This document shows, one piece after another, positions 3,969-57,363 of a DNA stretch of 64,000 nucleotides. Within the stretch, counting starts at the first letter, position 1; the number at the start of each line of letters is the position of its first letter. A model generated the notes under the pieces. The model was not told the origin of the DNA and did no database searches. It saw nothing but the letters and a program-made list of their open reading frames with translations. The DNA lies in contig OZ244048.1 of the NCBI GenBank assembly GCA_965215265.1, positions 3,648,001-3,712,000 of the forward strand, in the 5' to 3' direction. The translations under genes were made by a program, and so were the position numbers. The stretch comes from Candidatus Poribacteria bacterium (GTDB taxonomy: Bacteria; Poribacteria; WGA-4E; WGA-3G).

Positions 3969-5342
3969 ATGAAGAGTTCACAATCTGCACATCTCTATAG
4001 GCGGGTAGCAATTCCACTTGCCTTCCTTAATGAAACATCTGGAAAGAGGTGGGGCGGCGATATCCGTATCGGGGACTTGACAGGTGATGGAAATGCCGAT
4101 CTTCTGGTTTACAAATCCATCGGGGGTATCCATCCATGCTTTCTTGGGGCGTTTACACTCGAAGGTGAGCCGATCTGGGCATTCGGTAATAAGCATCTTA
4201 CACTCCAAGACGCTGACGATGAAACATCTGTCCTAGAAACACTCTCGCCCGAACGTCCCGGTCCTGTTGCGATTTATGATATCGACGCGGACGGAAAAGC
4301 AGAGGTTATCTGTTTTTGGCTTAGTTCAAAGGCGAGACAAGCGAGCAAATGGAGTCTATCTGCAATTCAGTTGCTGATTTTAGACGGCGCGACCGGTGCG
4401 GTTAAACACAGTAGCACACCTGACGAACTTCGGCACTGTAACGCTTATGCAGAAGGTGAACTGCACATTCCAAACTATGTACATCAACGTTTGATGATTG
4501 CCAATCTTTGTGGCAATGCCCAAGCCCAAGATTTTGTCGTTAAGGTTGGGGTTGCTGTGCTCGCCTTTAACCACGAACTTGAGTTACTGTGGCAACATAC
4601 GGATCGGTGGTTCCGTTACCCGCGCCACTCAGCGTATATCCCCGCTGTTGGGGACATCAACGGCGACGGGCTTGATGAAGTCAACGGTGGCAATTTCGGG
4701 CTAGCTGCCGATGGAACGGTACTCTGGGATAAGTACCTTGGCGATAACATGGACTCAGTCCTAGTTGAAGAATGGGGCGAGAATAGCAGAGATGCCAAAG
4801 CAGCTATCCTCTCTGGAGGGGGCCAGGTCCTCCGTAGCGATGGTACGTCGGTTTTCTCGCTGGGGCTCGAAACAGTGCCGCATGGACAAGAAATTCGGTG
4901 CGGTAACCTCCTCACAGACTCATCAGGGCGCGAACTTGTTGTCCGTTATAACGGACACAAGCCAGAACTGATGGTGGTAGACAACAGCGGGCAGATTCGG
5001 AGCCGGTTTCGCGTTGAGGAAGCGCCAAACAATACAGGCTTAGAGATTATCCGTTGGAATGGATTAGGTAATGCTGAATTAATTTATAGTCCCGCGGCGC
5101 TCTATGATGCATACGGGAATAAAGTGGTGACGTTTCCGGAACTCCCGCCACCAACTGGTGGCAAAATGGGGTGGTACCACTGCTTTCCTGCTGATGTCTG
5201 TGGAGACGAACGGGAAGAGGTTATCTTATATGACCCTTACAGTGACACGGTCTATATCTATACGCCAAAACCTTTTAATCCCAACCAATTTAAGGGCTAT
5301 AAGCACACGGAACGGCAGTACAACGCCCGGTTAATGGACTAA
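3969..5342 (+). CDS. FG-GAP repeat beta-propeller protein, rhamnogalacturonan lyase family 11-like
   Basis: Repeated Ca-binding motifs GDLTGDG, YDIDADG, GDINGDG, ADVCGDEREE; ATG at 3969 preferred over the overlapping upstream start. Confidence 0.7.
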   Translation: MKSSQSAHLYRRVAIPLAFLNETSGKRWGGDIRIGDLTGDGNADLLVYKSIGGIHPCFLGAFTLEGEPIWAFGNKHLTLQDADDETSVLETLSPERPGPVAIYDIDADGKAEVICFWLSSKARQASKWSLSAIQLLILDGATGAVKHSSTPDELRHCNAYAEGELHIPNYVHQRLMIANLCGNAQAQDFVVKVGVAVLAFNHELELLWQHTDRWFRYPRHSAYIPAVGDINGDGLDEVNGGNFGLAADGTVLWDKYLGDNMDSVLVEEWGENSRDAKAAILSGGGQVLRSDGTSVFSLGLETVPHGQEIRCGNLLTDSSGRELVVRYNGHKPELMVVDNSGQIRSRFRVEEAPNNTGLEIIRWNGLGNAELIYSPAALYDAYGNKVVTFPELPPPTGGKMGWYHCFPADVCGDEREEVILYDPYSDTVYIYTPKPFNPNQFKGYKHTERQYNARLMD

Positions 5343-5350
5343 GAAACAAC

Positions 5351-6604
5351 ATGGTTAATAAATTTCTGCTTGTCTCTATTGATTGCTGGCGGTTTGACGC
5401 ACTCAGCTGCACCAATCCACGTTTCAATACCCCAAAATTTGACCTGCTCACTCAGGAATTCTCCCTCGCTGAGAGGTTTTTCGTCACTGCACCAGCAACC
5501 CGGCCCTCGCATACGTCATACTTTACAGGACTTTATCCGTTTGAACATGGGGTTTACGGGCAGACCTACCTCAAAATGTTTCAAGGTATACCCCATCTAT
5601 TTCAACTCTTTAAAGATGCAGGCTATCACATCACCGGCAGATCGGAGCGCCCGGAGGTATTTCGCTTTCTCGATTTTGAGCCGTTTATTACTGCACTAGA
5701 CCCGCGTGCCAAAGCACAACATCTCGGTGCACTTGAAGACCTTCTTGAGCACCTCGTGCAGCCCTCAGATACACCACAATTCTGTTTCCTTCATTTTTGG
5801 TATACGCACGGCGGATACGGCATGTCAGGTATACCGAATGCCCCAAATTTTAAATCACTCGTGGAGAGTAGGAGAACAGATGAGGCATTGCGTTTTTATT
5901 ACGCCGCTGTGACACATATACTTGAATTTAAACTGGTTGAAATTCTGAAACACCTTTCGCTTTCTGAATGGGCGATCTTTATCTTCGGCGACCACGGCGA
6001 AGGGATTTGTGAGGAAATTATCGCACATGGAGACACCCTCAATCAGAACGTGCTGCATGTACCGCTTTTAGTGCATATCCCCAACTATGAAGTGTTGGAA
6101 TTTCCTAACGCTCCACTATCTTCATTGGACCTGTTCCCGACACTCACGAACCTCGCCGGTATTGACGTAGATTATAAAGGATATGGACACAATCTACTAA
6201 ACCCATCGGAAATTGATAACCGAGCATTGGTTTTGTCAGAGTTGGATAGTCTGTACGGCATCGGTTTCCTCAGTCGGAGTAACTTAGAAATGCCACATAA
6301 CCGCGTGACCTCCCGTACATCGGTCGATAACATAGAAATCAATAGATACTCAGAAGGAGTCCGACTCTGGTCACTTACGGATGGCGATCATCTCTATCGG
6401 GAAGACGAACAAACCGGCGAATTTGTGTATAGAAAGGTAAAGAGCGGAGAAGATATCGTGTGCGGAGATCCGCAGCGATTTCGTGAGGCTTATGACGATA
6501 TTTTGATGAATTCCAACTATCAGCACCTTCAGGCTCAAGAAACGACCTCAGAAGAGACCCAAATATTGGAAGGAAGACTAAGGGATTTAGGGTACGTTGA
6601 GTAG
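5351..6604 (+). CDS. Sulfatase-like alkaline-phosphatase-superfamily hydrolase/transferase with Thr at the nucleophile position
   Basis: SIDCWRFD, ATRPSHTSYFTGLYP, GDHGE, LHVPLL and C-terminal RLRDLGY motifs. Confidence 0.8.
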   Translation: MVNKFLLVSIDCWRFDALSCTNPRFNTPKFDLLTQEFSLAERFFVTAPATRPSHTSYFTGLYPFEHGVYGQTYLKMFQGIPHLFQLFKDAGYHITGRSERPEVFRFLDFEPFITALDPRAKAQHLGALEDLLEHLVQPSDTPQFCFLHFWYTHGGYGMSGIPNAPNFKSLVESRRTDEALRFYYAAVTHILEFKLVEILKHLSLSEWAIFIFGDHGEGICEEIIAHGDTLNQNVLHVPLLVHIPNYEVLEFPNAPLSSLDLFPTLTNLAGIDVDYKGYGHNLLNPSEIDNRALVLSELDSLYGIGFLSRSNLEMPHNRVTSRTSVDNIEINRYSEGVRLWSLTDGDHLYREDEQTGEFVYRKVKSGEDIVCGDPQRFREAYDDILMNSNYQHLQAQETTSEETQILEGRLRDLGYVE

Positions 6605-6616
6605 ATTGTTCAATTT

Positions 6617-7108
6617 CTAAGACGGAGACAGTTCATGAATTGTCACATCCAGTGATTTCAATTCTACAACGGCTACCGTTGATTTACCAGTTGTCCACCC
6701 ACCTGTTTCCCCTGGATTAAGTAAAAGCGACTTTTCGTTGCAGATATCAATCTTATGGGTGTGGCCATAAACGACAATATCGTAAGTACCACCCCTTGCA
6801 ATCGGAATAGCGAGCTCCGGATAGTGCATAACAGCGATATTCCGCTCTCCAAGGGAAACGTTGGCTAAGTTGGGGTGTACCTCCCCGATGGTTTCAAACC
6901 GTTGTGCAATAATAACGCGTTCCCCGTCATTATTGCCGAACACTCCCACGACGCGGCAATTCAGATTAGCTAGAGGGGTAATGGCAAACGGGGCGATAAA
7001 ATCACCCGCGTGCACAACCAAATCAACGCCGATATCGTTGAAGAGGACAACAGCACGTTCGATTTGGGGAATGTTGTCGTGACTATCGGACATAACACCG
7101 AGTTTCAT
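6617..7108 (-). CDS. YfcE/MJ0936-family metallophosphoesterase
   Basis: SDSHDN, HAGD, GNND, YGHTH, LLNPGE motifs; start reassigned to MKLGVMSD. Confidence 0.9.
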   Translation of the reverse strand: MKLGVMSDSHDNIPQIERAVVLFNDIGVDLVVHAGDFIAPFAITPLANLNCRVVGVFGNNDGERVIIAQRFETIGEVHPNLANVSLGERNIAVMHYPELAIPIARGGTYDIVVYGHTHKIDICNEKSLLLNPGETGGWTTGKSTVAVVELKSLDVTIHELSPS

Positions 7109-7130
7109 GTGAGATTTTCCTTTTTTTGAT

Positions 7131-7991
7131 TTAGAGAGTTTTGCGGATTTGTTCAAATAACTCAGTATTGGGATGCCCTTGATAGAGGACAACACAGTAC
7201 CGTAACCTCAGGTTATCATCGTCGGCAAGTTTAATAGGTTTATAGTAGGCAGGAGAAGGATGGATAAGGGAGTAATGCTGCCGATTCCGCACCCACCACG
7301 TTGTCGGATAGCGCGGATTTTCCGGATTATCAATGATAGCAGCCCCATAAACCTTGCTATCAGCCGGGTGTTTCGCAGTGAAACTGCACCATTGGCTCTG
7401 TTTGCCAAAGATGTCCATAGGTTCTGTGCGGTTGTCTGCGTCCAACAGTTTGCCTGGTGTGAGAACATTATCAAAACGAATAGCTAAACCGCTGTAGAAC
7501 CTGCCATCTGCGCCGGGCTCGCCCCGTCGCAAATCTAAAACGACCTCCCGATCATTGGGTTGGAATGCCAATTCTACGAGAATATGCATAGAATCCTCAG
7601 TAGGCGTGCATACGGTGAGCTGCCGACGTTCTGTCATATACGTTATGCCTTGCCAATCGATCCAAGCATTTTCAGTGATTAAGCTTGCGTGTTCGGCATC
7701 TGCCTTCTGTTCAAAAATGTTTTGATGTACGATTTTTCCGAAACCCGTAGCATCCGCACCAGCAGCGGGTTGCTCCCAAAAATTGACACCGTTAACTTTT
7801 TTCCAAGCCACCCACATTCCTTGATGATGCACGTGGTCACCAGGTTCATTCATCGTCAGCGACGGTGCACCGGGCAATCTCAGTGGGTGACAATACGGAC
7901 GGTTACCCTCTTTAGGAAAGTGGTAACTCAAGACCTGCTGTCCGTTCCACGCGACTGTTAAACTGTATTGTGTTTGCGATAGTGAAAACAT
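7131..7991 (-). CDS. Uncharacterised DUF6807-type (so-called PmoA family) beta-sandwich protein
   Basis: RPYCHPL...PGDHVHHQGMW...VNGVNFWE and DNPENPRYPTTWWVR signatures. Confidence 0.7.
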   Translation of the reverse strand: MFSLSQTQYSLTVAWNGQQVLSYHFPKEGNRPYCHPLRLPGAPSLTMNEPGDHVHHQGMWVAWKKVNGVNFWEQPAAGADATGFGKIVHQNIFEQKADAEHASLITENAWIDWQGITYMTERRQLTVCTPTEDSMHILVELAFQPNDREVVLDLRRGEPGADGRFYSGLAIRFDNVLTPGKLLDADNRTEPMDIFGKQSQWCSFTAKHPADSKVYGAAIIDNPENPRYPTTWWVRNRQHYSLIHPSPAYYKPIKLADDDNLRLRYCVVLYQGHPNTELFEQIRKTL

Positions 7992-8003
7992 TGCTTTTCC
8001 GTT

Positions 8004-8864
8004 TTAGTTAAGGTATGGCTTAACGACCTCGCGTTCCAAAGCTAATCCTTCCCATTCGTCATCGCCCGGTCCATCATAGATAAGGGTGTGTGGTCCAGAA
8101 AAACCAGCTTTCCGGGTCAGTTCCAAGCATTGGACATAATCATCCTTTTCCATCTGGCGCGGTGCAGTGAAATGGGCTTTGGTATGACACGATTCTGCCA
8201 ACGAGGCAATAGCACCCAGGTCATCGTATTTCGTCTCACCACGCCAGTTACCGAAGTCCAAGCAAAGTCCGACCTTTCCATCTAATTCGCCTAAAATAGC
8301 ATTAACGTTGTCAGGCGTGGAAAAGATAGAAAACCAGTTTTCACTCATCAAACGGACACCGACGGTTTCTGCAAGCTTAGCGAGTTGGGCAAGCACATTG
8401 CGGCTTTGTGCAATCGTCGTTTCAGAGGGTGCAGCTTTACCACCGATGACGCGTGCACACTTCGCGTCGAGTTCACCGGCAATATCGAGCCAGGTTTCTA
8501 TCCACGCTATATCGCGTGCTGCTTCGGCTGGATGTGTAATGTCACCGTCGTCAATTAGCAATGAAAAAAGTTCAACATGAGCATCTGCTAAGGCTGCACG
8601 GAGTTCTGACAAGTATGCTCGCTCAACAGAGGGCAAATGGAAGTGGCAAATTTCTAAAGTGTGGATACCAAATTCGGCAACGTGGTTCGGTAATTCCAAC
8701 AAGGAAATGGGACCTTTATTGTGCGTTTCAATAGGAATGTGCATGCCGTTCGCTGGGCCGGTGAACCCGGGCCGTCCAAGTTGCCTGTGCAAACTCCATG
8801 TTGAAACCGAGAGGCGTGGGGAGGAATTCACCCCGCAGGGCGGGGAGAACTTCTTAATTGACAT
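8004..8864 (-). CDS. Sugar phosphate isomerase/epimerase (TIM barrel), N-terminus carries an in-frame palindromic repeat
   Basis: LSVSTWSLH, LEICHFH, LMSENW, LCLDFGNW, CHTK motifs; GGAG RBS 10 nt before ATG 8864. Confidence 0.85.
   Translation of the reverse strand: MSIKKFSPPCGVNSSPRLSVSTWSLHRQLGRPGFTGPANGMHIPIETHNKGPISLLELPNHVAEFGIHTLEICHFHLPSVERAYLSELRAALADAHVELFSLLIDDGDITHPAEAARDIAWIETWLDIAGELDAKCARVIGGKAAPSETTIAQSRNVLAQLAKLAETVGVRLMSENWFSIFSTPDNVNAILGELDGKVGLCLDFGNWRGETKYDDLGAIASLAESCHTKAHFTAPRQMEKDDYVQCLELTRKAGFSGPHTLIYDGPGDDEWEGLALEREVVKPYLN
8821..8860. repeat. 40-bp imperfect palindromic repeat, copy 1 (inside CDS)
   Basis: GAGGAATTCACCCCGCAGGGCGGGGAGAACTTCTTAATTG, identical to 14024-14063. 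Confidence 0.95.
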
Positions 8865-47638: not shown

Positions 47639-50245
47639 TTACATTTGGGCTGCATTTTCTAACGCATCCTCAAGCGACTGCCGAAATTCGTTTTCATCTG
47701 CGTTGTTGTAGAACGGTACGCCGATTAAGCGATAATTTCTATCCTCTGTCAGGATTCTATTACTAAATTTCGCTCTGATTTCTTCCAAGAAGTCGGCTTT
47801 CCATTTGTCATGTGATTGCAAAAATGCCCCTTTCGGTTCGATGAAAAGTTGATAACTCAGCAGTGTATCGCTTTTGTTAGCATCATTTCCGGATTTTAAA
47901 CCGTTTTTCTCACGTAAGAACAAGACAAAGTCGGGTTGGAAAGTTTGCCCATCTGGAAAATTATGGATAGCAAAATGCCCTTCGTTGCGGAGCAGATAAA
48001 TATCCTCGTATCTTTCCTCTAATTGTGGGATGAGTCGATCTAACATCCGCACGAACGCCTTTTCTACACTGCTGCCGTAGAGGGTATTGAAGGCAAACCA
48101 GTCTCTGACGGAGACGAAGTGCTTGAACTGTACGTCCTCGTCGGCATTCGGGTTGTTAGGGTTGAATTTCAGACGCTTATCCGTGAAAATTGCCCGGACA
48201 GGTTGCTCCCCAAACGCTGTTGTGCCCTCGTATTCTGTGATTTGCTTTTGGATTTCTGCCTCAATTTGCTGCATCAGCCCACAACATGCTGCGAATTGTT
48301 CGTGACGATTTGATTCCAATGCATCGATATCGCCTTCAAAGGTGATTTCTAGGCTCCCTAAGTAGTGCTCTGATGTCATGAATTCGCGCATGGATGTTAG
48401 TTGTGGAAAATAGCGTTTGAGCGAGGCGAACGTGAAAAACGGATTCCTAGCAATCGCGGATTGAACGACGTTGCGTTCAATATCAGTTACCTTCATATCC
48501 CGTCGGTTCTCATTGTACACCACCGGTGTCATCCCGTTTTCCAATATGGTGGTCGTCCCGCCGGATCCGGTCGCCACGTTATGAACGTAGTTTTGTTTCT
48601 GCACACCTAAGTCCTCAAAAGATTGGATATGCCGGTGATCCTTCGGGACGCGTTTGTTGAGCCAGACGACACCGTATTTGTAAAAGTCGGTCTGCTTAAA
48701 CTGCTTTTTTAATTTGAGTTTTCGGGTTACAGTCCTCTCGTCTAACATGCCTTGTTCGACTAAGGCAGTGCGGATTTCAGAGATATAGCGCGAGTCGTTG
48801 ATACTGTGGTAGTGTAGTTCTTCCAAGACACGTAGTTCATTATCAAGGTCCCCGTCGAATTTACGTCGGAACCGGTCGGGTTGTTCTGGTAGGATAAACG
48901 GAAAATAACGTGCCCCACGTCCGATGAGCTGCGCCTCGGATGTCGTCGTTGAACCGATTTTACCTCGTCCGGAATCCCGTGTCTCATAACAACGGACAAT
49001 GTCAAATAGGTTCAGAACGTCCCAGCCTTCGTTGAGCTTCTGCACCGCAAAGATCGCCCGGATCGGATTGCTCGGCTCTTCAAGCGTATTCACCTGGATC
49101 TGATAGTTCTTTTTCTCCTTCTCATCATTGACTGAAAGACAGTGTGCTTCTTGAAATTCTTGTTTCAGACGTTGTGCTAACTGTTCCTCGGTGATATTAT
49201 TTTCAGCGAAGAATCGGAGTGCTTGTTCAACAATAGGAATGTTTGATCCACGGATACCGCAGATCTCTTGTGCCGTGAGACCGTCAATCAATTGATGAAA
49301 AGTCGCTTTGTTCTCTTGCGACTGTGCAATTGTGCGCTGTGCCTTGAACAGAATCACCGGTTTGAAGTTAATCCCGTAAGCTGCCGCCACCTCCTGTTTA
49401 TATTGGCTGAGAATGAGAGCCTGCAAGATGCGTTGGTTCAATTCAAAATCGGATTGAACAATTACCACGTCTTTTGAGAACCGATCGTTTCGGAAATTCA
49501 CCAAATCGTAGCGGGTAATAACCTTATTCCGATATTTCTCCACCATTGCTGACGTTTCGTAATCGTGCGTGGCGGTGAATTCCAACAGCAAATTATCTCT
49601 ATTGGAATTAAAGATTCGCTCCACCGTGCTTTCCCAATTGTCAAATAGCTCCTGCTGTGTCTTGGTCTTAACGTTCATATGATGTGCTTCATCCGCCAAG
49701 AGTACGATCCGTTTCTCTGCGAAATCCTCGTAGGTCAGTTTATTCTCCTTCTCCGTTGTCATATCGCCGTGGAGCTGCTGGATGGTTGTGAAGCAGATAT
49801 TGATCTCGTTTTCATTGACACCTTCAAAATTATCTACCTGTGTCACGGCAACGCGTCGTCCCGCAAAATAGATATTTTCGCTGAAAAGATATTTAGAGGA
49901 GAGCGGGTTGAGGAAGTTGTCCTTCGTCTTCTCAATGATATTGGTGGAATTGACGAAAAATAGGAAATTACGGTACCCTTTTTCATAGAGATAGAGGATT
50001 AGCCCTGCCATGATGAGCGTCTTACCACTGCCGGTCGCCATGTTGAACAGCAGGTGCAGCGGGTTCTCCTTGCCTGGGAAATCGGTATTGAGGCAGTGAA
50101 TAAACCTTGCAAACGCTTCTTCCTGATAGGGACGGAGTTCAAACACCGGATTCAGATTTTGCATGATGCTCTCCGGCATTTCCGGTTTGAGACCTCCGTA
50201 GTTGAATGTAATATCAAGTTTTTCATGAAGGAATTGGTTAGGCAT
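47639..50245 (-). CDS. res: Type III restriction enzyme Res subunit (SF2 helicase plus PD-(D/E)xK nuclease)
   Basis: LRPYQ, MATGSGKT, DEAHH, EFTAT, LNEGWDVLNLFDI, QLIGRGAR, FQPDF...IEPKG; ATG overlaps the last mod stop (ATGCCTAA). Confidence 0.93.
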   Translation of the reverse strand: MPNQFLHEKLDITFNYGGLKPEMPESIMQNLNPVFELRPYQEEAFARFIHCLNTDFPGKENPLHLLFNMATGSGKTLIMAGLILYLYEKGYRNFLFFVNSTNIIEKTKDNFLNPLSSKYLFSENIYFAGRRVAVTQVDNFEGVNENEINICFTTIQQLHGDMTTEKENKLTYEDFAEKRIVLLADEAHHMNVKTKTQQELFDNWESTVERIFNSNRDNLLLEFTATHDYETSAMVEKYRNKVITRYDLVNFRNDRFSKDVVIVQSDFELNQRILQALILSQYKQEVAAAYGINFKPVILFKAQRTIAQSQENKATFHQLIDGLTAQEICGIRGSNIPIVEQALRFFAENNITEEQLAQRLKQEFQEAHCLSVNDEKEKKNYQIQVNTLEEPSNPIRAIFAVQKLNEGWDVLNLFDIVRCYETRDSGRGKIGSTTTSEAQLIGRGARYFPFILPEQPDRFRRKFDGDLDNELRVLEELHYHSINDSRYISEIRTALVEQGMLDERTVTRKLKLKKQFKQTDFYKYGVVWLNKRVPKDHRHIQSFEDLGVQKQNYVHNVATGSGGTTTILENGMTPVVYNENRRDMKVTDIERNVVQSAIARNPFFTFASLKRYFPQLTSMREFMTSEHYLGSLEITFEGDIDALESNRHEQFAACCGLMQQIEAEIQKQITEYEGTTAFGEQPVRAIFTDKRLKFNPNNPNADEDVQFKHFVSVRDWFAFNTLYGSSVEKAFVRMLDRLIPQLEERYEDIYLLRNEGHFAIHNFPDGQTFQPDFVLFLREKNGLKSGNDANKSDTLLSYQLFIEPKGAFLQSHDKWKADFLEEIRAKFSNRILTEDRNYRLIGVPFYNNADENEFRQSLEDALENAAQM

Positions 50246-52201
50246 CGTTATCTGCTCCATAAAATTCTCGGTTGAGTCCTTTATCTGTCTCACTAACCTC
50301 AAAATCCGCGTCGTCTATTTCGGAGAGGTTGAGATAGAGTTGATTCTTGTCCAGCAACGCCGCCAAGAGTTGCTGCTGCTTGTCCACATTATTGATGGCG
50401 ATGAAATCTCGCACTGCGGCTTCAGGCATTTGCGGATTGACATACCAATTCAAGAATGAGTTTTCGGCGATGTTTCGCCAGAGTTTGACAAGTTCTTCAG
50501 CGGATTGTGCCGCTTGAATCTGTTCCATAAACGCCTCGTTGTATGGCATTAACTCACACGAGAGGAAAGATGCTGGTGTTAACCCCTCCTGAGCCATCAC
50601 TTTCTCAATCCGCTCCTTGCAAACAGTGACATGTTCCTCTAATTGTTCAACAAGGATAAATTGCCGCTCTACCCCCCCCCTTCAGATTTGTTAAGTTCAA
50701 GCACGGCATGCCCTGTTGTGCCTGATCCGGCGAAAAAGTCTAAAACAATATCATTACTGCCGCGCTGGGTGATAATATCAATTGCATCTTTTACAGTGTG
50801 AATGGATTTAGGATAACTGAAGACTTTTTTGCCATCAAACATTCCTTTCAGTAGGATTGTCCCGTGTGCAGACGCATCATATTTTGAGTCAGTCCATATT
50901 GTTTTAGTTTTCCTGCCTTCTCGAATTCTATCCTTTATATACAGCGTCCATTTGCCCCTAGATTTCTTGCAGACTATTTCCCCTTTTGCCACAAGTTTCA
51001 GGAAAGAAGGCTTTGTTTGTCGCCATACTCGTTCTTTCCCAAGCGAATCTAATGGCAGAATTTTGACAAATCCTTCTTTTTCTTCCAACGAAAATTCATT
51101 TTCGCTTTCATTATAGTAAATCGGATAGAAAGAATTTGGTCTCTCTTCAGGAGTTGAATAGCCTCCACCTCTCCTAAAGGGCGAAAGGCGGTACCTGCTT
51201 ATCTCATCCTGATGGTTGAAATCAAGTTCTTGTTGTTCTGTCAATTTTATAAGGTTTGTTGATACGTTATCAATGGCCTTGGCGTAAAATAGTGCGTATT
51301 CGTGACAGGTTGCAAAGTGAGTGTTCGTTGTGCGACCACCTGGCTTACTTTGAATGACGATAGTCCCGATATGATTTTCTCTGCCAAAAGTGTCATCGCA
51401 GAGTAGTTTGAGATGTGCGTATTCATAATCATCTATGGTAGCGACTAGAACGCCTTTTTCTGATAGCAAGTCTTTTGAAATATCTAGCCGGTTCTTCATA
51501 AACGTCAACCAACTTGAATGATTGAAAGAATTGTTGTATCCAAAAATATTAGCATCCCCTTTCGTGTTATACGGTGGATCTATGTAAATCAACTTTATCT
51601 TCCCTCGGAACTGTTGTTTGAGGGAGTGAAGTGCAATCAGATTATTGCCCTTGATGATAAGGTTTTCTCGGATTATACCCTCTTCATCGCGTTTGATAGC
51701 GGACACCGGTTGTGTGCCGGCAGCCGTGTGGCGTTTCCAATTCGTTAGCACCTTCGCATCTAAGAGGCGGTTGATTTCATCGTCGGCAAGGATTTCATTG
51801 AAGAAAAGCTCCTGTCGTTTTTCCTCCTCGTGCGTCTGTCCCCCCTCCAAGACGCAATCCTTATAGGGCCATGCGAGTGCGACTTCGCCGCGTTCTCGTA
51901 GGAACTTGTCATCAACGGTTAATCCGATTCTGTTGCGGAATCTGGTGTAGGAGTCGCCAAAGAAGTTTTTGTCAGAGATGTAGGTAATGAAGGTGTTGTA
52001 ATTGAAAACATACCGCCCGTTGATGTCGTCAAAAAATTTTTCCGCTATCTCCTTATCTGTCATCAACAGAGCAATCAAGCCGTGGTCGAGTTGCCAGGCG
52101 CGGTTTCTGACGGCGGCGGGGATGAGTTCTTCGGCATCGTCAACAAAACGCCGGTCGGTTTTGAGGAGGTTAATCAGTTTTTGGTTGAAGTTTGATGGCA
52201 T
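50238..52201 (-). CDS. mod: Type III Mod methyltransferase copy C, frameshifted at G9 (654 aa if G10)
   Basis: IYIDPPY, DFFAGSGTT; GAA-G9-TAG stop; the shifted frame continues VERQFILVEQLEEH into ORF 50238-50600. Confidence 0.92.
50672..50680 (-). repeat. G9 homopolymer tract in mod C (candidate phase-variation switch, OFF)
   Basis: C9 on + strand; G10 or G7 restores the frame. Confidence 0.85.
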
Positions 52202-52221
52202 AGTCGTCTCTTTTTTGTCGG

Positions 52222-54159
52222 TTATGTATAAAATTTCTGGTTCAGTGCCTTATCTTCGTCGCTGACACCAAAATCCGCGTCGTCTATTTCGGAGAGGTTG
52301 ACATAGAGTTGATTCTTATCCAGCAATGCCGCCAAGAGTTGCTGCTGCTTGTCCACATCATTGATGGCGATAAAATCTCGCACTGCGGCTTCAGGCATTT
52401 GCGGATTGACATACCAATTCAAGAATGAGTTTTCGGCGATGTTTTGCCAGAGTGTGACAAGTTCTTCAGAGGATTGTGCACTTTGGATTTTGTTCATATA
52501 GGCTTGGTTGTATGGCATCAGTTCACAATAGATGAAGTTACCACCGCCTTGCCATTTGATGGATTTGGAGATACCCCCTTGTTCTCCGGCAATGACTTTT
52601 TTTAAGCGGGTGAGCGTCACCGTTTCGACATAATTCATTTGTTCAATACCGATGTACTGTCTACCCATTTTGTGTGCGACAGATGCAGTTGTGCCACTAC
52701 CTAAGTGAAAATCCAGCACGATGCTTCCTTCATCGGTACCGAGTTCAATAACACGTGCAATTAGATGTTCAGATTTCGGATAGTCAAATACTTTCTGGTC
52801 GAATAATGTTTTTATGTGCTCGGTTCCTCTTTCGTTTACGAATTCTTTTTCATCCCAAATACTTCGCTGTCGTTTTGAGTTACTCCTATATTTTTGGACG
52901 ATCATATACCCTTGATCTCTTTTCGCTTTCCCTTTTATCTCCGTGTTTAAGTTCTGGCGTGCTTTTTCCTGGCTCCATCTCCAAACCGTTTGGATGCCCT
53001 GCGATTTTAATGGCATCACTTCGATAAAACCTGGTTTTTCTTTCAAGGAAACTTCCAGCAAGCCATTGGCATCCATATTGGTTGGATTGATATAAAAAGG
53101 GTAACAGAGGTTTGGACGATTTTTAGCGTTAAATCGAACATTGCGATTTCTGAGCTCCATTAAGTTAAAACCGCCGAGTGTATCTTCATAGTCAAACGTT
53201 TTATCGTTTTCTTCTAATTGCTTCAGTTCGATTTGTTTGTTTTTTGAATAGATCAAAAGGTATTCGTGAGTCCTCGCAATACCACCGTAATCTCTACCAC
53301 TTCTATTTATTACAACGATAGAATTTGAGATAAAATTTCGGCTACCAAAAATCTCATCCATCAAAACTTTCAGATATGCTTGTTCGTTATCATCACACTG
53401 AACAAAAATTACTCCATCATTTCGCAATAATTTGATCGCTACTTCCAACCGATTTCTCATAAATGTGAGCCAACTGGAATGATTGAAACTATCATTATAA
53501 CCAAACGAATCATTTCCGGTGTTGTACGGCGGATCTATGTAAATTAATTTCACCTTGCCCCGGAATTGCTGTTTCAAACTATACAGTGCTAATAGGTTGT
53601 TGCCTTTGATGATAAGGTTTTCTCGGATTGTGCCCTCTTCATCGCGTTTGATGGCGGACACCGGTTGTGTGCCGGCAGCCGTGTGGCGTTTCCAATTCGT
53701 TAGCACCTTCGCATCTAAGAGGCGGTTGATTTCATCGTCGGCAAGAATTTCATTGAAGAAAAGTTCCTGTCGTTTTTCCTCCTCGTGCGTCTGTCCTCCC
53801 TCCAAGACGCAATCCTTATAGGGCCATGCGAGTGCGACTTCGCCACGCTCGCGCAGGAATTTGTCGTCAATAGTTAATCCGATTCTGTTTCGGAATCTTG
53901 TATAGGAGTCGCCAAAGAAGTTTTTGTCGGAGATATAGGTAATGAAGGTGTTGTAATTGAAAACATACCGCCCGTTGATGTCGTCAAAAAATTTTTCCGC
54001 TATCTCCTTATCTGTCATCAACAGAGCAATCAAGCCGTGGTCGAGTTGCCAGGCGTGATTTCTGACGGCGGCGGGGATGAGTTCCTCGGCATCGTCAACA
54101 AAACGCCGGTCGGTTTTGAGGAGGGCGATGAGTTTTTGGTTGAGGTTGGCTCTACGCAT
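52222..54159 (-). CDS. mod: Type III Mod methyltransferase copy B, intact (645 aa)
   Basis: IYIDPPY, DFHLGSGTT, RQYIGIEQ, WQGGGNFIYCEL; no G tract. Confidence 0.95.
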   Translation of the reverse strand: MRRANLNQKLIALLKTDRRFVDDAEELIPAAVRNHAWQLDHGLIALLMTDKEIAEKFFDDINGRYVFNYNTFITYISDKNFFGDSYTRFRNRIGLTIDDKFLRERGEVALAWPYKDCVLEGGQTHEEEKRQELFFNEILADDEINRLLDAKVLTNWKRHTAAGTQPVSAIKRDEEGTIRENLIIKGNNLLALYSLKQQFRGKVKLIYIDPPYNTGNDSFGYNDSFNHSSWLTFMRNRLEVAIKLLRNDGVIFVQCDDNEQAYLKVLMDEIFGSRNFISNSIVVINRSGRDYGGIARTHEYLLIYSKNKQIELKQLEENDKTFDYEDTLGGFNLMELRNRNVRFNAKNRPNLCYPFYINPTNMDANGLLEVSLKEKPGFIEVMPLKSQGIQTVWRWSQEKARQNLNTEIKGKAKRDQGYMIVQKYRSNSKRQRSIWDEKEFVNERGTEHIKTLFDQKVFDYPKSEHLIARVIELGTDEGSIVLDFHLGSGTTASVAHKMGRQYIGIEQMNYVETVTLTRLKKVIAGEQGGISKSIKWQGGGNFIYCELMPYNQAYMNKIQSAQSSEELVTLWQNIAENSFLNWYVNPQMPEAAVRDFIAINDVDKQQQLLAALLDKNQLYVNLSEIDDADFGVSDEDKALNQKFYT

Positions 54160-54179
54160 AGATTTTCCTTTTTTGTCGG

Positions 54180-56083
54180 TTATGTATAAAATTTCTGGTT
54201 CAGTGCCTTATCTTCGTCGCTAACACCAAAATCCGCGTCGTCTATTTCGGAGAGGTTGAGATAGAGTTGATTCTTGTCCAGCAACGCCGCCAAGAGTTGC
54301 TGCTGTTTGTCCACATCATTGATGGCGATAAAATCTCGCACCGCGGCTTCAGGGATTTGCGGATTAACATACCAGTTCAAGAATGAGTTTTCTGCGATGT
54401 TTCGCCAGAGTGTGACAAGTTCTTCAGAGGATTGTGCCGCTTGAATCTGTTCCATGAACACTTCGTTGTATGGCATTAACTCACACGACAGGAAAGATGC
54501 TGGTGTTAACCCCTCCTGAGCCATCACTTTCTCAATTCGCTCCTTGCAAATAACGACATGTTCCTCTAATTGCTCAACGAGGATAAATTGCCGCTCTACC
54601 CCCCCCCTTCATATTTGTTAAGTTCTAAGGCAGCATGCCCCGTCGTTCCTGAACCAGCGAAGAAGTCAAGGACAATATCACCCGCATCAGTTGTGAGTTT
54701 CATGATATCTAAAACAGTATATAGAGATTTGGGGTAACTAAACGTCTGCCGCCGATCTAACATTTTTTTTAGCAAACCTGTACCATGATGGTTTGCATCG
54801 TACCGGGCATCAATCCACATGGTTGTTGCTTTATTTTTCTTTCTAACTATTTTTCTATAAATTTTGTGTTCGTTTCCCACTTTTCTCACAATAATTTTTC
54901 CAGCATTTAGTTCCTCTAAAAAGGATTCCTTAACAAGTTTCCAAGTTCTCATCCCATTCTTACCCATAGGTAAAAGTTTGACGAAATCGCTGCCGTTATC
55001 ATCTATTGTAATTTCTTGGGTTATCGGATTGTAAAAAATAGGATAATAAAGGCTAGGGCGGGTCTCCGGGGTTGCATCTTCTCTTGACCGGATAAATGAA
55101 TCCTCTTCTTCCGCTTCATTTATTTCAAAACGGAAATCCTCTTTAACTTTCGTAATGTTTTTGGCATAAAATAACGCGTACTCATGAACGGTTGAGAAAA
55201 AACTGCTTTGCGTTCTACCACGCGGATGATGTCTGATACAAACCGTGCCTATTTTATTCTGTCCACCGAAAACTTCATCCAATAGCACTCCCAGGTAAAA
55301 TAATTCTGTATCATCGATAGCTACCGCTATGATTCCATTTTCGCTTAGTAATTCCTTCGCAACCGCTAATCTGTTTTTCATAAAGGTGAGCCAAGTGGAG
55401 TGATTAAAGGCGTTGTTGTAGGTAAAACTGGCCGCAGAACCGCCTGTATTATACGGTGGATCTATGTAAATCAATTTTATCTTTCCCTGAAACTGTGGCT
55501 TCAAACTATGCAGTACCAATAGGTTATTGCCTTTGATGATAAGGTTTTCCCGGATTGTGCCCTCTTCATCGCGTTTGATGGCGGACACAGGTCCCGTCCC
55601 AGCAGCCGTGTGGCGTTTCCAATTTGTTAGCACCTTCGCATCCAAAAGACGGTTGATTTCATCGTCGGCAAGGGTTTGATTGAAAAAGAGTTCTTTTCGC
55701 TTCTCTTCTTCGTGTGTCTGTCCACCCTCCAGTATACAGTCTTTATACGGCCAAACAAGGGAGACCTCGCCACGCTCGCGCAGGAATTTGTCATCAACGG
55801 TTAATCCGATTCTGTTCCGGAATCTGGTGTAGGAGTTGCCAAAGAAGTTTTTGTCAGAGATGTAGGTAATGAAGGTGTTGTAGTTGAAAACATACCGCCC
55901 GTTGATGTCGTCAAAAAATTTTTCCGCTATTTCCTTATCTGTCATCAACAGAGCAATCAAGCCGTGGTCGAGTTGCCAGGCGTGATTTCTGACGGCGGCA
56001 GGGATGAGTTCCTCGGCATCGTCAACAAAACGCCGGTCGGTTTTGAGGAGGTTAATCAGTTTTTGGTTGAAGTTTGATGGCAT
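54180..56083 (-). CDS. mod: Type III Mod methyltransferase copy A, frameshifted at G9 (634 aa if G10)
   Basis: IYIDPPY, DFFAGSGTT; GAA-G9-TAG stop; the shifted frame continues VERQFILVEQLEEH into ORF 54180-54527. Confidence 0.92.
54599..54607 (-). repeat. G9 homopolymer tract in mod A (candidate phase-variation switch, OFF)
   Basis: C9 on + strand, same context as 50672-50680. Confidence 0.85.
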
Positions 56084-56150: not shown

Positions 56151-56179
56151 AGTATACTCTAAAACAGGATTGGTGTCAA
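56151..56179 (-). promoter_or_regulatory. Sigma70-type promoter of the mod-mod-mod-res operon
   Basis: TTGACA-17 bp-TATACT on minus strand, about 67 bp before mod A. Confidence 0.75.
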
Positions 56180-56215: not shown

Positions 56216-56258
56216 TGCCTTATCTGCGTCACTGATACCAAAATCCGCATCGTCTATT
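56216..56258 (-). pseudogene. 43-bp remnant of a mod gene 3' end (IDDADFGISDADKA)
   Basis: 39/43 identical to the mod B 3' end (52246-52288) by manual alignment. Confidence 0.85.
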
Positions 56259-57363
56259 GCGCCTTCCACATTTGTGCACGCTCGAGGAATACGCCACGAT
56301 CTGCCAGCCACTCTTCATAACCGATATTTCTGTTATCGGTGAGGTAGTTAATTTTCTCATCAATGCAGGCGGCCAGCTCAGCATCTTCCAAGGCAAATGA
56401 AAAGCCGCCGTGTTCTACTTCTTCATCAAGAGCGGTGACAACGAATTTGCCACCTGAAGCATGCGCTAATTCAAGGTTACCGAGCCTGCTGCGTGCGATT
56501 GCATCGATGTCACCAGCCCTGAGTGCTTCTAGCCGTTCGGATGCACTAAGGTAGATGATTTGAGGCATGTTTTCTGTTGGTGGATAGAGGCGGGTCCGTG
56601 TTACAAGATTGGGTGAAACCGCACCAGCGGTGATTTTGTACGCTGGTGTTCCGTCAGCAACGAGAGTCGCTTGCGGTGTCTCAATTCGTGTGCCCGCGGC
56701 GAGAGTACCTTCTTCATTGGCGAGCCCTGTGAGTACAAGGAGCCGGGCTTCGCTCGTAGTGCCAGGCAGCGTGGCGATGCGCATGTCTTGAGTCAAATCT
56801 GCATGGGTAGCGATGCGTTTGGCATCTTCGGCAGCTACGAGGAGCGATTGCTGGAAAGTGATATGCCCAGAGGTAAAAATGATGCGTCGTGTGCCGGTTG
56901 CATCGCGCGTCCGGGAGTCAAGGATTGTAATGCCGCCACTAATCAGGTCGTATTCGGGTTCTGTTGACTTCAGCCAGATGTCGGGCCATTCGGGGATTGC
57001 ATGGCGTGAAAACGAAAGTCCGGTTCCTTCCATTGCTTCAAGCGCGGTTAGCAGGTCTGCCTCATACCCCTGATGTGTATTGAATCCATCTGAGTTCGGG
57101 TCTGGGTCTGCACTGTAGCTTATTGGTTCAAAAAAGGGGAAGAAGCCCACATTTAGCACGCGCATGCCATCTGTGCAAGCATGCCGGGTTGTTCCATTTT
57201 CAGGCGTAACCGTCTGTTGCATTTTCTCACAAGCTGCAAAGAGGAAGAGAGTGCTCAAAAGTGCATAGAACGCGATACCTTTCGAGGCTTGGCTTCCGGC
57301 AAGATGCAAAAGGCGAAGTGCCGTGCTTCTGTTTTGTGGTAGCATGCTGAAAAATTTATACAT
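56254..57363 (-). CDS. Amino-acid-type (family 3) ABC substrate-binding lipoprotein
   Basis: Lipobox LFAAC, LNVGF..FEPISY, GYEADL, GGITILDSR, ALRAGDIDA; true start may be slightly downstream. Confidence 0.8.
   Translation of the reverse strand: MYKFFSMLPQNRSTALRLLHLAGSQASKGIAFYALLSTLFLFAACEKMQQTVTPENGTTRHACTDGMRVLNVGFFPFFEPISYSADPDPNSDGFNTHQGYEADLLTALEAMEGTGLSFSRHAIPEWPDIWLKSTEPEYDLISGGITILDSRTRDATGTRRIIFTSGHITFQQSLLVAAEDAKRIATHADLTQDMRIATLPGTTSEARLLVLTGLANEEGTLAAGTRIETPQATLVADGTPAYKITAGAVSPNLVTRTRLYPPTENMPQIIYLSASERLEALRAGDIDAIARSRLGNLELAHASGGKFVVTALDEEVEHGGFSFALEDAELAACIDEKINYLTDNRNIGYEEWLADRGVFLERAQMWKAQ

Follow-up and report, generated by a model that had tools for sequence, protein, structure and literature searches.

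A Type III restriction-modification operon, modC-modB-modA-res, lies on the chromosome of a member of the Poribacteria, a sponge symbiont, and two of its three methylase genes, modA and modC, are each cut short by a run of nine G residues. Are these runs switches of gene expression, errors of assembly, marks of gene decay or sites of recoding? We consider it probable, from comparisons among related sequences, that they are slippage-driven switches that turn Type III mods ON and OFF heritably and reversibly. The kind of switch is already known; its genomic context is new.

The operon and its two G runs

The features of the locus in the window (the whole 64-kb stretch of DNA that was analyzed) are as follows.

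47639..50260, minus strand: res, intact open reading frame (ORF), 873 aa from the ATG at 50260 or 887 aa from a TTG at 50302
50238..50672, minus strand: modA C-terminal part, 144 codons read in the G10/G7 frame, with a stop that overlaps the probable start of res
50669..52201, minus strand: N-terminal ORF of modA, 510 aa, stopping at a TAG immediately after G9
50672..50680, minus strand: G9 run of modA (C9 on the plus strand)
50690..50696, minus strand: ACTTAAC motif of modA, 9 nt upstream of G9
52222..54159, minus strand: modB, intact, 645 aa (PF01555, E = 7.8e-46; PF12564, E = 6.6e-18)
54180..54599, minus strand: C-terminal part of modC in the G10/G7 frame, 139 codons, from the motif II region through the C-terminal domain
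54596..56083, minus strand: N-terminal ORF of modC, 495 aa, stopping at a TAG immediately after G9
54599..54607, minus strand: G9 run of modC (C9 on the plus strand)
54617..54623, minus strand: ACTTAAC motif of modC, 9 nt upstream of G9, encoding part of E-L-N
56151..56179, minus strand: candidate operon promoter (TTGACA-17-TATACT), 11 of 12 sigma-70-like matches, lying ∼68 nt before modC begins
56216..56261, minus strand: isolated fourth copy (89%) of the last ∼15 mod codons, upstream of modC

ModA, ModB, and ModC all match PF12564 and PF01555 above the cut-off. The N-terminal ORF of modC (PF12564, E = 1.1e-17; PF01555, E = 1.6e-32) contains a TypeIII_RM_meth domain, motif IV (DPPY), a variable target-recognition region, and motif I (FFAGSGTT), and the order in these proteins is DPPYNT near residue 208, the recognition region, and FFAGSGTT near residue 489; we take the beta-class labels (motif IV = DPPY, motif I = FxGxG) to apply to these Mods. 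Their closest solved relatives, Mbo45V (1.8e-36), Mod 6k0w (2.6e-33), and the EcoP15I Mod (2e-32), are all Type III Mods, and ELNKEDGG-NR of Mbo45V aligns with ELNKYEGGVER of the proteins studied here. The res gene, directly downstream of modA and overlapping its ON-frame stop, encodes a ResIII helicase domain (PF04851, E = 1.9e-34); Res had no sequence match among solved structures at E ≤ 0.001. The candidate promoter is a consensus match in a region that holds 19 promoter-like sites against 16.1 in shuffles, which is no excess. The isolated mod end upstream of modC resembles a remnant left by duplication or deletion within the array.

An N-terminal part of ∼215 aa is almost invariant among the three Mods and a C-terminal part of ∼100 aa is common to them, while the central target-recognition region is divergent. 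Because the recognition regions differ, one Res is probably directed to three different DNA motifs. A second array elsewhere in the genome contains two further mod paralogues, both at G9 and with the same conserved N- and C-terminal parts, and res of this family is present in a single copy. The count of four methylome and restriction states proposed in an earlier note on this DNA is therefore too low, since these two additional G9 mods have the conserved termini and would draw on the single res.

The anatomy described in that note is otherwise correct. Both G9 tracts are real, they have the identical coding-strand context GAA-G9-TAG-AGC-GGC-AA, and they fall in homologous alignment columns, i.e., at the equivalent codon. 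One added G joins 510 and 144 codons into a ModA of 654 aa and 495 and 139 codons into a ModC of 634 aa, sizes that match those claimed; the frame is restored by G10 or G7 in both genes, and the restored extension begins VERQFILVEQ in each. The two C9 tracts are the only G/C runs of ≥8 nt in the window (four overlapping 8-mer matches, against a mean of 0.91 in shuffles, 3 of 100 of which reached four or more). Each is thus a mononucleotide run of at least 9 nt, the minimum given in the available text of PMC5909438, within an ORF whose frame it sets. An earlier in-frame GGGG is also present in modA before its G9 run. ModB, used for comparison in the earlier note, is indeed intact at 645 aa and lacks the tract or any other simple repeat; the segment between its motifs I and II is of another sequence type (GRQYIGIE). 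Homologues from the same bacterial family that lack the run (P0006-P0013) read ELNKQDGGxRQF, with the glycine codons GGC GGT, and it appears that the conserved D/E-G-G codons right after motif I were turned into the G run in modA and modC.

We propose that at G9 translation would end at the TAG directly after the run. This stop precedes motif II and the C-terminal domain, and therefore no active methylase would be expected from G9 alleles. Slipped-strand mispairing during replication would shift run length, and a change to G10 or G7 would turn the gene ON, in a manner predicted to be heritable and reversible. With modA and modC OFF, ModB and Res would be the remaining expressed system. The descriptions of ModB as constitutive and of the two switches as independent are plausible extensions of this anatomy.

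Run length, frame and selection among relatives

Run length differs among close relatives. In orthologue clusters compared across public assemblies at ≥90% identity, ModC has 495 aa here (EGGG, then the stop) and 502 aa, corresponding to the G8 frame, in two other sequences; ModA has 510 aa here versus 518 aa elsewhere (G8 frame; orthologue P0145). The mods of the second array occur across assemblies in G9, G8, and G12-like forms. Logan contigs of four public runs from two studies contain a C8 form of the modA tract (one C fewer at 50672), in one contig each, with no C10 form among those listed; such contigs break at the mod repeats and at the runs, which leaves stretches lacking cover without weight as evidence, and they merge k-mers of paralogues and strains, so that the C8 form need not reflect heterogeneity within a strain. 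A search of metagenome contigs for the exact pattern of both mod-run flanks returned no stretches, from a collection that may leave out the genome's own or very near records, and the strict motif pattern of this genome's mods returned none among genome contigs, where a looser pattern was used instead.

All four run-bearing mod paralogues of this genome are OFF, and none of 11 public sequences of this type, modA and modC included, is full length at G10 or G7, although the 11 are not independent because they are drawn from few assemblies. Both switches would thus stand at OFF lengths (G8, G9, and G12) here and in the nearest public relatives. Sister mods do include both states. The clusters P0005 and P0022 share 98% identity over 496 aa, and their sequences part exactly at GGG; of the 22 members that include motif I, 7 encode the full-length protein and the other 15 have one or the other OFF frame. 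The ELNKRE allele type of these clusters is present in all three frames, and at the homologous site in five other genomes of the family two of six run-bearing mod copies are in frame. Judged from these alleles, the three-frame spread of the sister mods is the pattern characteristic of slipped-strand phase variation.

The coding sequence after the repeat has been kept under selection. Among the four paralogues the part following the run has a dN/dS of 0.10 to 0.22, and in the 38 post-run codons not common to ModB pS is 0.09 to 0.43 versus a pN of 0 to 0.095. In all four copies the ON frame after the run is free of stops over 129 codons, while the other frames have 7 to 9 (7 to 8 in each for modC). 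These data speak against plain pseudogenes, the outcome named in the earlier note as refuting its proposal, for which relaxed downstream selection is predicted: the ON frame is open and under purifying selection, with pN/pS of ∼0.1 to 0.2. The proposal of phase variation in modA and modC is thus borne out as to varying length, downstream selection, and sisters in all frames, but not as to the ON state of these mods themselves (0 of 11).

A genome-wide set of runs and its flanking motif

The modA and modC switches would be two members of a set of ∼100 runs spread over the genome, mostly in restriction-modification genes. The 4.8-Mb genome contains 100 G/C runs of ≥8 nt, their length distribution non-monotonic with a peak near 9. 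At least 42 lie inside restriction-modification or methylase genes, in 16 gene families that include Type IIG enzymes, and the genes concerned are often tandem paralogues with different recognition regions. We know of no larger candidate set of switchable restriction-modification genes. Forty of the 42 runs are out of frame, an assignment that is less secure where the gene part upstream of the run is short; 39 of these 40 need G10 or G7, and the lengths seen are only G8, G9, and G11. Random switching alone does not predict this pattern; either a bias toward contraction or selection favoring OFF is needed as well.

DNA methylases that switch through repeats have been studied chiefly in host-adapted pathogens, and the earlier note's placing of such switches there does not hold for this sponge symbiont, which has ∼100 of these runs. 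In Campylobacter and Helicobacter, run instability is linked to missing mismatch repair. This genome has MutS (two matches) and MutL, and therefore the instability is not attributable to missing mismatch repair, a cause we ruled out. No strand bias relative to replication could be assigned, as neither an origin nor a terminus could be read from the cumulative GC skew (motif-bearing runs, 25 versus 25), and a candidate ORF to the left of the run in family fam7 was not confirmed and was dropped.

Half of the genome's G/C runs of ≥8 nt sit downstream of an oriented ACTTAAC, whose orientation is fixed to the G strand whichever strand codes (G or C, about half each). The 9-nt spacer between motif and run in modC fits the genome-wide consensus A-n-A-T-r-T-n-A-A. 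An extended form of the motif matched Poribacteria only, among the genomes of 185,579 species; this genome has 19 copies of it, 14 accompanied by a run, and the five run-less sites are one paralogous FGE-type gene family, approximately the one chance match expected. ACTTAAC-N6-16-G8 was found in none of six genomes of genus g3 versus five of five of g1, g2, and g4; one g3 genome nevertheless has 28 G9 runs. A reading of ACTTAAC as a protein motif (L-N...G-G-G) was rejected, because roughly one motif-bearing run in two is C-strand coding, in another frame, or outside ORFs. A general promoter function is unsupported: hexamer spacing is inconsistent, with 6 to 16 nt between motif and run, and a large number of the sites are deep in genes. 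Relatives have an imperfect 7-4-7 inverted repeat, ACTTAAC-N4-GTGAAGT, but a hairpin is not a general feature, with only ∼3 bp pairable in this genome's mods.

We tentatively suggest, as a possibility that we hold in some doubt, that the Poribacteria runs are portable composite switch modules served by a lineage-specific, DNA-level factor, i.e., a programmed hypermutation system. The putative module would consist of an oriented ACTTAAC, 3 to 4 nt, (G/A/C)TGAA abutting the run, and T-A after it; the proposed factor would read this element at the DNA level and install, stabilize, or drive change in run length, with modules inserted, in one orientation or the other, into dozens of restriction-modification genes. 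This suggestion fits the position of the module in place of the DGG codons in Type III mods and within an inserted linker in a Type IIG family, and it fits the in-frame length of G10 in 39 of the 40 OFF restriction-modification runs, as if they had been born at G10. If true, it would mean dedicated programmed hypermutation in a genome possessing MutS and MutL.

A trivial origin of the split genes would be an assembly or base-calling error, with a true length of G10 and both genes intact; the earlier note had raised homopolymer under-calling as a caveat. A general artifact of that kind is unlikely, as ORFs are split at 6 of 769 loci with A/T runs of 8 to 12 nt and at 21 of 46 with G/C9 (12 of 44 with G/C8, 0 of 66 with G/C7). 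G8 runs in the essential genes rpoC and trpA are in frame, G10 and G11 calls exist elsewhere in the genome, two of them in frame, and a family of LRR genes mixes in-frame C8 copies with out-of-frame C9 copies. Although G10 would be in frame for nearly all split restriction-modification genes, which are called at 8 or 9, and although all six G11 calls have G on the plus strand and none has C (6 versus 0), which could hint at strand-specific calling, the other assemblies and the listed contigs of four public runs show G8 or G9, not G10, and we regard such an error as very improbable. Decay is a quite unlikely explanation as well. It would hold that slippage silenced modA, modC, and most restriction-modification paralogues, that OFF was favored, and that the runs have since drifted neutrally with no return to ON. 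The uniformly OFF state of the four run-bearing mods, here and in all 11 sequences, agrees with this, as do the 40 of 42 OFF runs and the membership of many affected genes in multicopy families. Against it stand the stop-free 129 codons in four copies and a pN/pS of ∼0.1 to 0.2 at pS up to 0.43, a constraint that holds in the 38 codons that could not be copied from ModB; moreover, no second disabling mutation was seen in modA or modC, and 7 of the 22 sister-cluster sequences are ON.

It is also conceivable, but in our judgment unlikely, that the OFF lengths are the normal ones and that RNA-polymerase slippage or ribosomal frameshifting at GGG-GGG-TAG yields a low, constant amount of full-length ModA and ModC, with DNA run-length variation secondary. 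A stop codon immediately after the run, 40 of 42 restriction-modification runs out of frame while downstream frames stay open, and a conserved flanking motif that could serve as a slippage stimulator would all suit such recoding, for which there is a precedent: in the available part of a preprint (10.64898/2026.04.01.715767), mod constructs of Mycoplasma bovis that carry a frameshift are reported to retain low expression via frameshift suppression. Yet G8 and G9 alleles need different shifts, sister genes are truly in frame in DNA, and run length differs between close relatives, with 8, 9, 10, and 12 among orthologues and paralogues rather than the fixed-length conserved slippery run of programmed recoding. 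The orientation of ACTTAAC, which tracks the G strand and not the coding strand, is likewise a misfit with a signal at the level of RNA or the ribosome. Slippage-driven switching therefore is the reading of modA and modC that we favor.

Such a set of candidate switches suggests that restriction barriers and methylomes vary combinatorially within the population, as a strategy of defense in dense, phage-rich host tissue. The phylum-restricted motif beside the runs makes testable whether a dedicated cis element and factor are at work or slippage alone. Gene callers output fragments (495, 502, 510, 518 aa, etc.) from such genes, and the restriction-modification repertoires of these genomes are therefore misannotated. 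Our literature search found no paper connecting phase variation to Poribacteria.

Comparison with known systems

Campylobacter is without MutS/MutL mismatch repair, and we know of no conserved flanking motif at its poly-G runs; the genome studied here has both MutS and MutL and about 100 runs, of which no fewer than 42 fall within restriction-modification or methylase genes. It nonetheless resembles the poly-G phasome of Campylobacter jejuni, as far as the text available from two papers describes it (PMC4889913, PMC6321876), in having many runs of G8 to G11 with a peak near 9 and in having restriction-modification genes among the targets, including the Type IIG gene cj0031 in C. jejuni.

In a REBASE survey, 662 of 3,805 Type III mod genes (17.4%) had a simple repeat, environmental species included (Atack et al. 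2018, PMC5909438, from the part available). As in the phasevarion mods described there, a repeat within the mod ORF sets the frame and conserved N and C termini flank a variable recognition region. Unlike in those mods, the run here is late, on the conserved D-G-G after motif I, and OFF leaves a truncated protein of 495 to 510 aa; three tandem mods precede one res, in an uncultivated sponge symbiont. Several phase-variable mod paralogues with different recognition domains also occur in Mycoplasma species, according to the accessible text of the preprint cited above (10.64898/2026.04.01.715767, citing Atack 2018). There, as here, paralogues with distinct recognition domains and repeats of their own give combinatorial methylation states, but the repeats described are mostly (AG)n in minimal-genome pathogens, whereas G runs with a flanking motif are found here in a 4.8-Mb genome. 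The operon is also like the Type I multi-hsdS systems, in the portions of PMC7394358 and PMC6265443 available, in that alternative specificity modules at one locus serve one restriction machine; in those systems site-specific or homologous recombination shuffles half-domains, whereas at this locus frameshifts would toggle whole Mod genes.

A Mod-Res locus with two interrupted methylase genes

The tandem Type III methylase genes modC, modB and modA and the restriction subunit gene res all lie on the - strand, and apart from the C9 tracts in modA and modC the window has no G/C run of length 8 or above. The features of the locus, and of a second array of related mods elsewhere in the 4.83-Mb chromosome (G000), are as follows.

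56083..54596, - strand: modC, interrupted ORF, 495 aa
54617-54623: ACTTAAC motif at modC, fitting the motif-run consensus
54599-54607: modC run, C9 on the + strand (G9 on the coding - strand)
54159..52222, - strand: modB, intact, 645 aa, no run
52201..50669, - strand: modA, interrupted ORF, 510 aa
50690-50696: ACTTAAC motif at modA, fitting the motif-run consensus
50672-50680: modA run, C9 on the + strand (G9 on the coding - strand)
about 50260 to 47639, - strand: res, ResIII domain
G000:3122142-3126038 (about 4134-8039 of locus L049, G000:3118000-3128000): second array, two mods, both G9 and out of frame

On the coding strand, modA and modC each read GAA-G9-TAG, and both ORFs stop at that TAG; the interruption described in the earlier note was thus borne out by the window sequence. 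With one G more or two fewer, the frame stays open for a further 144 codons in modA and 139 in modC, beginning VERQFILVEQ and ending in sequence that resembles ModB. Translation confirmed the protein lengths given in that note: 654 aa for modA and 634 aa for modC in the restored (ON) frame, and 645 aa for ModB.

The intergenic gaps are 20 nt, and the modA ON-frame stop overlaps the probable res start. Because the top promoter-like site precedes modC and the - strand shows nothing terminator-like between the genes, modC-modB-modA-res is likely transcribed as one operon. The early stops in modC and modA might also reduce expression of downstream genes, among them res. The final ∼15 codons of a mod gene recur as a lone fourth copy (89%) upstream of modC at 56216-56261, beside a solute-binding-protein gene; this copy looks like a relic of array rearrangement.

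Each of the three Mod products carries a Type III N-terminal domain and an N6/N4 methylase domain, and their best relatives of solved structure are the Type III Mods Mbo45V, 6k0w, and EcoP15I. G000 encodes five mod paralogues of this family, three in the window and two in the second array, which has no res close by and is flanked by genes for a threonyl-tRNA synthetase and an oxidoreductase. The res of this family is single copy in G000, and the second-array Mods could restrict solely through the Res of the window locus. In an alignment of the five Mods, the first ∼215 residues are near-invariant, the central region is divergent, and the C termini converge again, which is the usual layout for mod alleles with different recognition domains. 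ModB is a mosaic (window 52222-54159, alignment columns about 500-570): its motif I-II segment is of the GRQYIGIE type, whereas that of the four paralogues is of the ELNK-DGG type, and both flanks are common to all.

Alignment with Mbo45V places the run on the conserved D-G-G following motif I. Most homologues from the same bacterial family, including protein clusters P0006-P0013, are run-less and read ELNKQDGGxRQF there, with codons GGC GGT; the run is therefore a local remodelling of conserved codons rather than an insertion. Since truncated ModA and ModC end before the ILVE-type motif II strand, they are expected, from the motif order of beta-class methylases, to be inactive.

Run-length variation, selection and the artefact question

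Length forms were compared inside protein clusters at ≥90% identity.

Length forms of the run-bearing Mods
ModC: here 495 aa (EGGG, stop); elsewhere two forms of 502 aa with EGGGRAAIYPR at the end (G8 frame)
ModA: here 510 aa; elsewhere one 518-aa form, the G8 frame
Second-array mods: here G9; elsewhere G9, G8, and YEGGGG (G12-like) forms

None of the 11 sequences of the four run-bearing Mods, which come from few assemblies, is full length. The sister clusters P0005 and P0022 share 98% identity across 496 aa and begin to diverge exactly at the GGG. Motif I is included in 22 of their members: 7 of these are full length, reading GGGKRQFILVEQ or similar with the run interrupted in some, and 15 are in one or other OFF frame; one allele type was found in all three frames. 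At the homologous site in other genomes of the family, two copies carry an in-frame G8, three an out-of-frame G9, and one an out-of-frame G10. Frame polymorphism of this kind is what slipped-strand phase variation leaves in a population, and it is seen precisely at the site of the modA and modC runs.

The post-run part appears constrained in the four run-bearing paralogues, with a dN/dS of 0.10-0.22. Its first 38 codons (pS 0.09-0.43, pN 0-0.095) could not be supplied by gene conversion from ModB, because ModB does not share them. The ON frame contains no stop in 129 codons, and each other frame contains 7-9.

On the question of artefact, G000 was scanned for split genes, recognised by a run with an open frame of 100 codons or more to each side, the two being in different frames. 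This signature occurs at 6 of 769 A/T runs of 8-12 (115 clearly in frame), at 0 of 66 G/C7 runs, at 12 of 44 G/C8 runs, and at 21 of 46 G/C9 runs. The G8 runs of rpoC and trpA are in frame, and ten places in the assembly are called G10 or G11. Assembled contigs from four public sequencing runs (two studies) each included one contig in which the modA run is shorter by one C, at depths of 216, 180, 19, and 4.6, beside neighbouring single-copy contigs at about 270, 570-690, 25, and 6-7, respectively; none with one C more was among the matches listed. These contigs merge paralogues and strains; they demonstrate the existence of both lengths, 8 and 9, without giving the ratio between them. We consider phase variation the probable best explanation for the interruption of modA and modC, whose ON forms have not yet been observed in the public sequences examined.

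Genome-wide G/C runs and the ACTTAAC partner motif

The chromosome holds 100 G/C runs of at least 8 bases (44 of length 8, 46 of 9, 4 of 10, and 6 of 11) and only 66 of length 7, a non-monotonic distribution; exact-G9 counts range from 0 to 44 across 30 relatives. The 100 runs form 48 sequence families, and run length differs between copies in 8 of 15 multicopy families. At least 42 runs, in 16 families, sit within methylase or restriction-modification genes, including N6_N4 methylases, Eco57I/MmeI-type Type IIG enzymes, Type III mods, and an HsdS; six more adjoin restriction-modification or defence-type genes. Out-of-frame runs make up 40 of the 42, and 39 of these would be in frame at length 10 (or 7); such frame calls are less certain where the pre-run part is short. 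Several loci are tandem paralogue pairs with a run in each copy. MutS and MutL are both present.

In a secreted leucine-rich-repeat family of 13 copies (L001 and 12 paralogous loci, e.g., G000:4595128), each copy has a run of C8 or C9 around codons 6-8 (MKRRMHPP...); the reading frame, signal peptide included, is intact in the C8 copies but not in the C9 copies. A comEC gene (Competence and Lactamase_B domains; L037, G000:3229028) is split at C8 and would be in frame at C9, its run adjoining a CTTAAT variant of the ACTTAAC motif. Separately, cumulative GC skew shows a nearly monotonic climb between 0.66 Mb and 4.71 Mb, which leaves no ordinary origin/terminus pair to be read from it.

Half of the runs (50 of 100), belonging to 21 of the 48 families, have CTTAAC on the G strand within 32 nt upstream. 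As controls, the downstream side of that strand gave 1 of 48 families, and the reverse complement gave 0 and 1 of 48. CTTAAC precedes 9 of 3152 G5, 1 of 500 G6, and 2 of 66 G7 runs. The motif-to-run distance is 6-16 nt, and 52 of 409 ACTTAAC sites have G7 or more behind them. The consensus is (a/t)ACTTAAC-A-n-A-T-r-T-n-A-A-G(n)-T-A; run-less mod homologues depart from it, with different codons for Leu/Asn. Because its orientation is fixed to the G strand whichever strand is coding, the motif looks like a DNA-level feature.

ACTTAAC-N6-16-G8 gave 66 overlapping matches in G000 and none for the reversed control; elsewhere it was found in 10 of 18 genomes from the same bacterial family, and none of 12 genomes representing three further families of the order has it. 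The relatives' form, ACTTAAC-NNN-YGTGAA-N0-6-G8, gave 25 matches among 185,579 species (one genome each), all 25 in Poribacteria MAGs. In a 7-copy Type IIG (Eco57I/TaqI_C) family (L004 / L105-L134), run and motif lie inside a ∼45-aa Q/N/S-rich insertion absent from run-less homologues, and in another genome that linker has a shorter insertion containing C9 and the motif. A motif-like sequence without a G run, probably a chance match, stands just upstream of the RVLRGGSW-type segment in five paralogous FGE-type genes (G000 212181, 1584712, 1664461, 3264282, and 4150370).

Comparison with known switchable mods

Among the matches listed, judged by title and abstract opening, nothing relevant linked Poribacteria to phase variation, homopolymers, poly-G or contingency loci: the single paper matching both subjects is a methods review, and the 10 listed of 23 homopolymer matches deal with other topics than phase variation. 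By title, no report of tandem mod arrays with a single res was among the matches listed. Repeat-controlled Type III mods are common, at 662 of 3805 in REBASE with environmental species included, according to one survey (PMC5909438), and the introduction to a preprint describes several switchable mod paralogues per genome in Mycoplasma (bioRxiv 10.64898/2026.04.01.715767); the modA/modC switch is therefore of a known kind. Unlike those systems, the Poribacteria run lies on the DGG after motif I, three tandem mods precede one res with two more in trans, the runs reach this scale in a nonpathogen, and they have a phylum-specific flanking motif. It is the genome-wide scale of the runs and their partner motif that are new and merit follow-up.
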